56,320 bases of DNA from Planctomycetota bacterium (GTDB lineage Bacteria; Planctomycetota; MHYJ01; WSZJ01). The translations under genes and the position numbers were made by a program. Shown here piece after piece: positions 47,042 to 47,235 of the stretch. The stretch spans positions 1-56,320 of the forward strand of contig JBBTCT010000032.1 in the NCBI GenBank assembly GCA_038060895.1. Reading direction: 5' to 3'. The first letter of the stretch is position 1; each line of letters starts with the position of its first letter. The notes beneath the pieces were generated by a model. The model saw only the letters and a list, made by a program, of their open reading frames with translations, did not search any database and was not told the DNA's origin.

Positions 47042-47235
47042 CGCAGCGAACGTCAGGGCGTCCCCCGACACGAGCTGCTTACAAACCGGACTCTTACTCC
47101 CGTGGTCGCGGGTTCGAATCCCGCCCGCTGCACCGGGCCCTCTTGTCCGAGAGGTCCCCGTGCAGCGGTAGCTCAGCGGCAGAGCACGATGCCTTACGTG
47201 GCAGGTCACACTAGGACGCCCTGACGCCCGCTGCG
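47042..47235 (+). ncRNA. YrlA-like Y RNA, unit 4, with a circularly permuted tRNA-like domain
   Basis: CGTCAGGGCGTCC (47051-63) and GGACGCCCTGACG (47214-26) form a perfect 13-bp stem. TACAAAC at 47080-86. T-arm 47108-24 precedes acceptor helix 47125-31/47162-68 and D-arm 47171-85. 3' ACTAG. Confidence 0.82.

Follow-up and report, generated by a model that had tools for sequence, protein, structure and literature searches.

Does an RNA encoded beside a Ro60-type gene imitate a tRNA as far as its anticodon arm, and does that arm give it the identity of a lysine tRNA? The question is raised by positions 47,042 to 47,235 of a 56,320-nt stretch from a Planctomycetota bacterium (GenBank assembly GCA_038060895.1, contig JBBTCT010000032.1, positions 1 to 56,320 of the forward strand), here called the window in its full length. 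An original prediction, made from the letters alone, placed a complete, circularly permuted tRNA-Lys(CUU)-like cloverleaf there, inside the RNA that we call unit 4. Comparison with related sequences leads us to consider it fairly probable that unit 4 is a tRNA-mimicking member of a four-unit Y-type array, that is, a divergent RNA of the YrlA kind with a composite anticodon-like arm, and not a lysine tRNA.

Anatomy of unit 4 and its likeness to YrlA

Every element of the predicted cloverleaf was found in its place when the segments were printed by script. The parts of unit 4, as we now assign them, are as follows.

47042..47235, + strand: unit 4, the whole RNA, with a basal stem (47042-63 with 47214-35; 22-nt arms, 91% complementary) around the tRNA-like module
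47077..47086, + strand: conserved 5' motif GCTTACAAAC, present in all four units, with C.TACAAAC invariant in 14 aligned homologues
47088..47100, + strand: lower anticodon-like stem GGA/TCC (tRNA positions 29-31/39-41) with the 7-nt loop CTCTTAC at 47091-97; exactly these three pairs form in the minimum free energy (MFE) fold of 47078-47191, and relatives carry the hairpin in fixed register
47101..47102, + strand: upper anticodon-like stem (positions 42-43), paired with G47188 and C47187 (28 and 27) just past the D arm, from the Rfam YrlA alignment and covariation
47103..47107, + strand: 5-nt class-I variable loop TGGTC, from the printed segments
47108..47124, + strand: T arm GCGGG-TTCGAAT-CCCGC, from the printed segments and the partial match to Rfam YrlA
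47125..47168, + strand: 7-bp acceptor stem (47125-31/47162-68), closed by an extension hairpin at 47132-61 (19-nt arms, 89% complementary)
47169..47186, + strand: U8-A9, D arm GCTC-AGCGGCA-GAGC (47171-85) and A26, from the printed segments and the partial match to Rfam YrlA

Four stem-closed units stand in tandem, each with the motif GCYTACAAAC, and unit 4 comes at their end. The 205-nt stretch around it (47036-47240) folds with an MFE of -104.7 kcal/mol (z -5.83), and its basal stem shows compensatory changes among the window, its closest relative (locus L001) and locus L003. The triplet CTT occupies 47093-95 in the anticodon-like loop, and C48 of the variable loop can presumably form a Levitt pair with G15 at 47176, as in tRNAs generally. 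The two acceptor strands read CCGCTGC, running on into ACC (47125-34), and GCAGCGG (47162-68). The ACC itself (47132-34) sits within the extension helix, where A73 and C74 are base-paired, and is followed by a 27-nt linker (47135-61).

A scan with Rfam models returned a partial match to YrlA (RF02553) at 47101-47188, which scored 34.9 bits where the gathering score is 69 (E 1.1e-5) and spanned positions 24-84 of the 114 in the model; the alignment takes in the T and D arms with the closed acceptor between them, and pairs 47101-03 with 47186-88. This succession of T arm, closed acceptor and D arm is the one described for YrlA by Chen et al. (2014, RNA 20:1715; cited here and below from the accessible part of the paper). 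Unit 4 resembles YrlA in that it adjoins a Ro60-type gene and lies beside other Y RNAs, in the order of its arms around a loop-closed acceptor, with the tRNA-invariant bases, in the short helix that links the strand leading into the variable loop with the one leaving the D arm, and in having upstream of the T arm a stem-loop that is optional in YrlA, where Chen et al. name it 'V', for variable arm. The printed segments, the partial match and the helices of relatives together uphold the proposal that this RNA is YrlA-like, its T arm preceding its D arm and its acceptor closed by a loop.

The likeness has its limits, however. Unit 4 reaches half of the Rfam gathering score, and YrlA was called at that score in 0 of 20 related loci. 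The Ro60-binding motif of YrlA, GNCGAAN0-1G (Chen et al., 2014), is absent from the 60-nt flank upstream of the conserved motif of unit 4, and a near-match, AGCGAACG, lies in the basal stem. Of the 58 upstream flanks of relatives, 2 contain this motif, where shuffles lead one to expect 1.55; in its place we find CCYNAY (54 of 58 flanks), GCYTACAAAC-type motifs and, on the 3' side, ACTNGTRC (37 of 58 flanks). YrlA is also an RNA that Ro60 binds and that TruB and DusA modify. The partner protein of unit 4 differs too, having no Pfam TROVE hit, and its cassette adds ubiquitin-like (Ubl)-type, 274-aa and ThiF/E1 proteins.

Two other RNAs invite comparison. Yrn1, a Y RNA of Deinococcus radiodurans, combines a T-arm-like hairpin with a 'potential anticodon arm' on a 5-bp stem (Chen et al., 2014), but it has a 6-nt loop, another order of arms relative to its 5' end and no clear D arm in the part of that account available, whereas unit 4 has a 7-nt loop with U33 and R37 and a canonical D arm. 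The tymovirus tRNA-like structure (TLS) is likewise an L-shaped mimic that includes a mimic of the anticodon domain (Wang et al., 2018, a preprint cited throughout from its accessible part). The TLS, however, forms a free 3' CCA end by means of a pseudoknot and is aminoacylated, while the end of unit 4 is capped; at this locus the TLS model gives a weak match only, and to unit 2, not to unit 4.

The anticodon-like arm in unit 4 and its relatives

The check proposed with the original prediction was to rejoin the two halves of the module in tRNA order. ARAGORN then calls tRNA-Lys(ctt) in 6 of 6 junction variants. The call does not discriminate, however: a tRNA was still called in 391 of 500 trials after shuffling of the 17-nt anticodon segment, and in 437 of 500 when random 17-mers from the window took its place. 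Since randomised anticodon segments are called as well, the result rests on the acceptor, D and T parts, and after this control we rejected it as evidence. The native order gives no ARAGORN call and no Rfam call at gathering score at the site. The isolated hairpin (47084-47104) has a folding energy of -2.2 kcal/mol, and 44 of 200 shuffles are at least as stable; taken by itself, this sequence shows no anticodon arm beyond what chance would produce.

The comparison across relatives gives a different answer. It drew on 80 loci with homologues of the Ro-like gene, from Planctomycetota, Chloroflexota, Cyanobacteria, Abditibacteriota and other phyla; Gemmata sp. IIL30, Calothrix parasitica NIES-267, several Microcoleus strains and Abditibacteriota IAD-21 are among the named strains represented. 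A covariance model, R1, built from seven sequences, matched 58 times at E<=1e-9; the matches lie in the window and 50 of the 80 loci, and the 55 distinct ones form the rows of the alignment used below. Pairing is formed in 99.6% of cells in the T stem, 98.4% in the acceptor and 100% in the D stem, with changes on both sides in three T pairs, all seven acceptor pairs and four D pairs, and the observed score was reached by none of 500 shuffles.

The hairpin, as first drawn (CCGGA/CTCTTAC/TCCCG), is 91.3% paired where letters exist, and its outer pairs hold up poorly (25 of 35 and 32 of 36). Its inner three pairs and its loop stand; the two outer pairs had to be re-assigned, as the partners of C47101 and G47102 are G47188 and C47187 and not 47087 and 47086. 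Pair 43-27 is formed in 51 of 55 rows (GC 35, UA 13, AU 2, CG 1) and pair 42-28 in 50 of 54, with four pair types, while further pairs beyond 42-28 fall off to 39 of 53 rows for a third and 12 of 45 for a fourth. Of the 33 rows that bear the hairpin, 30 show position 43 paired with the post-D strand (all 30 Watson-Crick) and 17 with the 5' strand (5 Watson-Crick); for position 42 the numbers are 29 (28 Watson-Crick) and 19 (17 Watson-Crick). The stem predicted from these rows is a composite of two base pairs made with the post-D strand and three within the incoming 5' strand, giving five as in tRNA. In the window, all five composite pairs (C47187-G47102, G47188-C47101, G47088-C47100, G47089-C47099 and A47090-U47098) are Watson-Crick, the MFE fold of 47078-47191 forms this arrangement, and the C·C mismatch of the first drawing is thereby gone.

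We also applied a fixed-register test anchored only on the start of the T stem and the end of the D stem, which makes it independent of the alignment of helix 1 in the model, with 1000 shuffles. A 3-bp hairpin with a 7-nt loop that ends exactly 7 nt before the T stem is found in 35 of 55 rows (shuffles: mean 2.4, maximum 7), the upper two pairs in 50 of 55 (mean 8.1, maximum 17), and both together in 32 of 55 (mean 0.3, maximum 3). Chance falls far short of accounting for the predicted anticodon arm across relatives. The 32 rows that pass both tests have Y32 in 30, U33 in 27, R37 in 30 and A or C38 in 30, and positions 34-36 are free. By its letters, this Y32-U33...R37 pattern is the signature of a tRNA anticodon loop. 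The variable loop reads AGGTC, AGGTT or TGGTC in 34 of 55 rows. What had been proposed as a fuller tRNA mimic, with an anticodon-loop-like hairpin in tRNA register, is in this way borne out by conservation and covariation in relatives.

The hairpin may be read otherwise. It was claimed with the original prediction that YrlA lacks such a hairpin, its Ro stem taking the place of the anticodon arm; that was too strong, as Chen et al. (2014) describe the stem-loop 'V' and read it as a variable arm. Unit 4 might then have only this stem-loop, a less-conserved stabiliser without anticodon mimicry, with the Y stem at the position of the anticodon stem as in Salmonella YrlA. According to the accessible text of Wang et al. 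(2018), the Salmonella RNA has no anticodon loop and its anticodon-stem equivalent runs on towards the Ro module, and 20 of our 55 relatives have no in-register hairpin. We find this reading rather unlikely, since hairpin and T stem are already separated by a normal class-I variable loop of 5 nt, and the hairpin is therefore not in the variable-arm position. The fixed 2 + 3 bp, the 7-nt loop and Y32-U33...R37 are, moreover, traits of an anticodon loop and not of a variable arm, and normal-order units of the same scaffold, described below, keep ordinary anticodon arms. In the YrlA-II seed alignment of Chen et al., read by eye, 5 of 11 sequences (M. smegmatis, Gordonia, Streptosporangium, mycobacteriophage ET08 and Chondromyces) fit the register, with 2 + 3 bp, a loop of 7 nt and then a variable loop of 5 nt; their 7-nt loops read, for example, CUUCUAA, CUCAUAA and CUGUUAA.

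Several points weigh against an anticodon-arm mimic. The hairpin has only three pairs, which alone do no better than shuffles in the window, and full-length MFE folds pair 47087-93 with 47072-77 instead. Its published reading in YrlA is as the arm 'V'. The 20 relatives without it imply that it is dispensable, and one cyanobacterial group has a plain 5-bp YrlA-type stem. The seven seeds of R1 were chosen for having the hairpin and the alignment was fitted to that model; the shuffle tests are further inflated by the relatedness of the aligned sequences. That the hairpin stacks coaxially on the 2-bp helix is suggested by their zero-nucleotide junction alone. Finally, the one RNA-library contig at this locus, from one RNA run among 15 listed, spans 47193-47369 only. 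The tRNA 'joints' in one sequencing set were ordinary tRNAs of other organisms.

With R1 the window scores 84.3 bits, and the rest of the genome gives at most 44.6, making unit 4 the only strong match. These scores bear on the possibility that the module is a decaying, functionless remnant of two tandem tRNA genes (3' half, spacer, 5' half). A tRNA-tRNA junction does give the same permuted order, R1 scores junctions in a tRNA array on another contig (C22) at 28-39 bits, and dimeric tRNAs are raised as a potential search issue in the methods of Chen et al. (2014). Such an origin is nonetheless already disfavoured and to us highly improbable, given the gap between 84.3 and 44.6 bits, a position beside the same gene family kept across several phyla with compensatory changes in every helix, and an acceptor cap that is usually 6-7 nt and not an intergenic spacer. 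The genome (5.4 Mb, 86.5% complete) has 85 tRNAs by ARAGORN, many with duplicated anticodons; the array on contig C22 is dense, with about 20 tRNAs at about 195-197 kb.

In 151 genomes of the phylum, R1 has matches in 21 and the Ro-like protein family occurs in 2. This co-occurrence is uninformative because R1 also detects canonical YrlA beside canonical TROVE genes. One such TROVE-associated YrlA-like RNA of the same phylum (L096:469-640) has a 3-bp hairpin with a 7-nt loop and the two upper pairs, and carries an 89-nt insertion in its acceptor cap.

A further helix between the conserved motif and the 3' flank was considered. CTGC at 47075-78 can pair with GCAG at 47201-04; the final four bases of the motif find a strict 4-nt partner in the 3' flank in 9 of 55 rows against 3.9 in shuffles, and together with the pairing labelled P2a in 6 rows against 0.18. 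This signal was too weak, and the helix ('P2b') was dropped from the general model.

Loop identity, permutation and possible cleavage

The lysine identity given to the module at first did not survive the comparison. The 29 seven-nt loops hold 20 different triplets, with CTT occurring twice, and the closest relative, L001 (protein 89% identical), has CCT. Among the tRNAs of its own genome, the rejoined domain is nearer to tRNA-Met(cat), at 77% identity, than to two tRNA-Lys(ctt), at 70% and 62%. Variable triplets, the CCT of L001 and the closer tRNA-Met(cat) leave the module without a lysine identity; 'Lys', as these alignments have it, is an accident of this lineage.

The same scaffold also contains tRNA-like units in normal order. 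There are 40 of these, with ordinary anticodon arms, in 23 of the 80 loci, mostly cyanobacterial; the scaffold motif forms the 5' strand of their acceptor, and their anticodons are often odd (att, atc, atg, aaa, tta). An anticodon-type loop therefore recurs in two topologies. The units start with GCNTACA at the 5' end and have ACTYGYRC downstream; they were seen in L047, L048, L052-L057, L060-L062, L065-L072 and L074-L076 (e.g. L072:2292-2366 and L047:1181-1255). Ordinary-looking tRNA gene arrays directly adjoin the cassette in three loci from Tepidisphaeraceae and Thermoflexales (L017:1555-1927, L031:7-772 and L032:6846-7254).

A loop whose shape is kept while its triplet varies, both between lineages and between units of one locus, is what would be expected of decoys that track different toxins. 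The module might on this account serve as a bait or sensor for anticodon nucleases, cleavage of the loop on the Ro-like scaffold reporting or absorbing a ribotoxin attack, and the accessible part of one paper (PMC7790460) links Salmonella Ro60/Y RNA operons to tRNA damage and repair. Against this, the conserved cassette has no nuclease, ligase (RtcB) or toxin gene and, generic E1 matches aside, no PADLOC family. The Lys(CUU) triplet is not conserved either, and a Lys-specific bait of the PrrC type, as first suggested, is without support as a trait of the family; the known target of PrrC is tRNA-Lys(UUU), not CUU. We regard the bait reading as very unlikely.

The permuted order raises another possibility, namely that RNase P cuts in the acceptor cap and the RNA, after 3' trimming and gain of CCA, becomes a two-piece and perhaps aminoacylated molecule. 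Circularly permuted tRNA genes and the two-piece (permuted) tmRNA likewise have the 3' tRNA half encoded first. There is a real precedent in M. smegmatis YrlA, which is cut at an RNase P site and gains CA to give CCA in vivo (Chen et al., 2014); these authors ascribe the cleavage to its 7-bp acceptor stem, and the stem has 7 bp here and in relatives too. In keeping with such processing, 53 of the 55 rows have G1-C72 and 36 have A73, and ACC is encoded in the window. At this locus, cutting in the linker is nonetheless less likely. A continuous hairpin with 19-nt arms takes up A73 and C74 in its pairing and leaves no single-stranded leader or trailer, and only 5 of 55 relatives have ACC after the acceptor. 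The linker (47132-61) has 30 nt in the window, against a median of 7 nt and usually 6-7 in relatives. No set of identity elements is conserved: the anticodon is variable, and G3:U70, the alanine identity pair, stands in the closed acceptor of 7 of 55 relatives (e.g. L050, L006, L008 and L003) and not in the window, which has A3-U70. The tmRNA_permuted model (RF04321) gives 16.1 bits against a gathering score of 47, and, unlike two-piece tmRNA, unit 4 has no mRNA-like part and a closed acceptor, its chain ends leaving by way of the 5' strand of the anticodon stem. The two-piece reading is on balance doubtful.

The RNA array, the Ro-like protein and its cassette

Unit 4 ends at 47235 and the Ro-like gene starts at 47315, 80 nt further on. 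The gene order around them is conserved: 74-aa protein, RNA array, Ro-like gene, 274-aa protein and ThiF/E1. The remaining features of the locus are listed here; counts of cassette proteins refer to the 80 loci with 3-kb flanks.

46268..46492, + strand: gene for a small protein of ubiquitin-like type, 74 aa, first of the conserved cassette (tblastn, 47 of 80 related loci)
46579..46686, + strand: unit 1, a long bulged-hairpin Y-like RNA with the 5' motif GCTTACAAAC (inverted repeat, motif family)
46753..46911, + strand: unit 2, stem-closed, with the motif and a T-arm-like hairpin, GGGGG-TTCGAAT-CCCCC, and without a D arm (inverted repeat, motif repeats)
46914..47044, + strand: unit 3, a stem-closed unit with the motif (inverted repeat, motif family)
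47266..47303, + strand: intrinsic-terminator-like hairpin (47266-93) and T tract in the interval between RNA array and Ro-like gene, a 12-pair stem followed by TTTCATTTTC (consensus match only)
47315..48796, + strand: gene for a divergent protein of predicted Ro60 fold, 493 aa, helical ring plus vWA (hhalign, ESM Atlas, profile; all 80 loci)
48803..49627, + strand: gene for a conserved 274-aa protein, family unassigned (31 of 80 loci)
49826..50587, + strand: gene for a ThiF/E1-like adenylyltransferase (Pfam ThiF, E 6.6e-33; 26 of 80 loci)

The other three units fold well. Unit 1 has an MFE of -60.7 kcal/mol (z -7.06), equalled by none of 200 shuffles, unit 2 (46760-46905) a z of -3.54, and unit 3 an MFE of -53.6 kcal/mol (z -4.81). 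In unit 2, a perfect T-arm-like hairpin, a 5-bp hairpin and ACCA follow one another (46792-46863), and the weak Tymo_tRNA-like match of the Rfam scan (25.8 bits, under the gathering score of 40) lies in this unit; its T-arm-like hairpin recalls the 'possible T-arm' of M. smegmatis YrlB (Chen et al., 2014). Elsewhere in the window, ARAGORN reports an 85-nt tRNA-Trp(cca) at 36536-36620 that has no Rfam tRNA call at gathering score and may be a false call or an unusual tRNA. Upstream of the cassette, the adjacent open reading frames (ORFs) 42237-44291 (684 aa) and 44383-46185 (600 aa) have no Pfam family; they match one and the same ORF of L001, with 35% and 59% identity, and look like paralogues of an unknown family.

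The 493-aa protein has no Pfam TROVE hit, and the genome, as far as its 86.5% completeness allows, has no canonical TROVE gene. Compared by hhalign with eight TROVE+vWA_Ro60 proteins of the same phylum, it reaches a probability of 98.2% (E 3.6e-14, residues 233-442). Its profile matches PDB 9l5y, a 'TROVE domain-containing protein', at E 5.7e-5, and the ESM Atlas model of the exact protein aligns at TM 0.71-0.77 over ~430-460 residues with TROVE/Ro60 clusters that are 85-100% TROVE. These three comparisons predict a protein with the Ro60 fold. The family has more than 3000 homologues, and 1531 clusters at 50% identity were counted. Several of its nearest Atlas clusters are mostly viral, with members labelled Uroviricota, and phages may often carry the family, as they do canonical Ro60/YrlA.

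The 74-aa protein ends in RPEAV[F/Y]G in 44 of 45 tblastn matches that run to the stop codon, an ending that appears to resemble those of ubiquitin-like or sulfur-carrier proteins. Neither this protein nor the 274-aa protein has a family in Pfam, NCBIfam, PADLOC or the Atlas, and homologues of the 74-aa, 274-aa and ThiF proteins were absent from 10 canonical TROVE loci, whose flanks span only ~1.5 kb. The 74-aa and ThiF/E1 proteins seem to make up a Ubl/E1 or sulfur-carrier pair linked with tRNA-like RNAs.

The reading we favour, of a YrlA-kind tRNA mimic with a composite anticodon-like arm, draws on the anatomy of unit 4, the conservation and covariation of its helices, the loop signature, the synteny with the Ro60-fold gene and the lack of a conserved anticodon, which are direct results of the comparisons above. 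Its effector module would be a YrlA-type permuted tRNA enclosed by a short helix between the two bases before the variable loop and the two bases after the D arm. The 3-bp hairpin with its 7-nt loop would stack on this 2-bp helix to form a composite 5-bp 'anticodon arm', nicked in its 5' strand at 28|29, where the stem of the Y RNA would branch off. By analogy with Ro60 and its Y RNAs, we hypothesize that the basal stem and the conserved internal loop bind the Ro-like ring, while the L-shaped mimic, as a tether or gate, offers a docking site to a partner that binds tRNA or to tRNA-modifying enzymes; the loop would serve as a generic anticodon-loop shape and not as a codon reader.

With a Ubl/E1 pair next to it, the RNA might itself be a substrate. 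The cassette might, as a long shot, be a machine acting on the tRNA mimic, in which the Ro-like ring presents the look-alike and the E1/Ubl pair modifies either the loop or an acceptor end cut by RNase P and bearing CCA. Such a modification could be a sulfur relay like that of TtuB/TtuC or Urm1/Uba4 on tRNA, or could even be the transfer of an adenylated protein C-terminus to the 3' end of the RNA. If this were true, the anticodon-like loop would be a substrate determinant and not decoration.

A full-text literature search found no description of an anticodon-loop mimic in YrlA-type RNAs, its reach ending short of some key papers and of the supplemental figures of Chen et al. (2014), which could already show the hairpin; a Ro-like/Ubl/E1 cassette was likewise not found described in a search that did not cover Burroughs & Aravind (2016) or Sim et al. 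(2020). The hairpin itself is not new; what appears to be new, within the literature covered, is its reading as an anticodon-arm mimic on a composite stem.

Y RNAs of the YrlA kind have so far been described as mimics without an anticodon loop (Wang et al., 2018, in the accessible text on Salmonella YrlA). The present comparison points to a large, mostly unannotated branch of the family, together with some published YrlA sequences as read by eye, that would carry an anticodon-arm look-alike in exact tRNA register on a nicked composite stem. This changes the possible docking targets of the effector module, among which anticodon-loop-binding or -modifying enzymes, ribosomal sites and nucleases become candidates, and it makes the look-alike a testable structural prediction. 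The comparison also defines a divergent Ro60 family that is missed by the Pfam TROVE model, and its conserved partnership with a Ubl/E1 pair.

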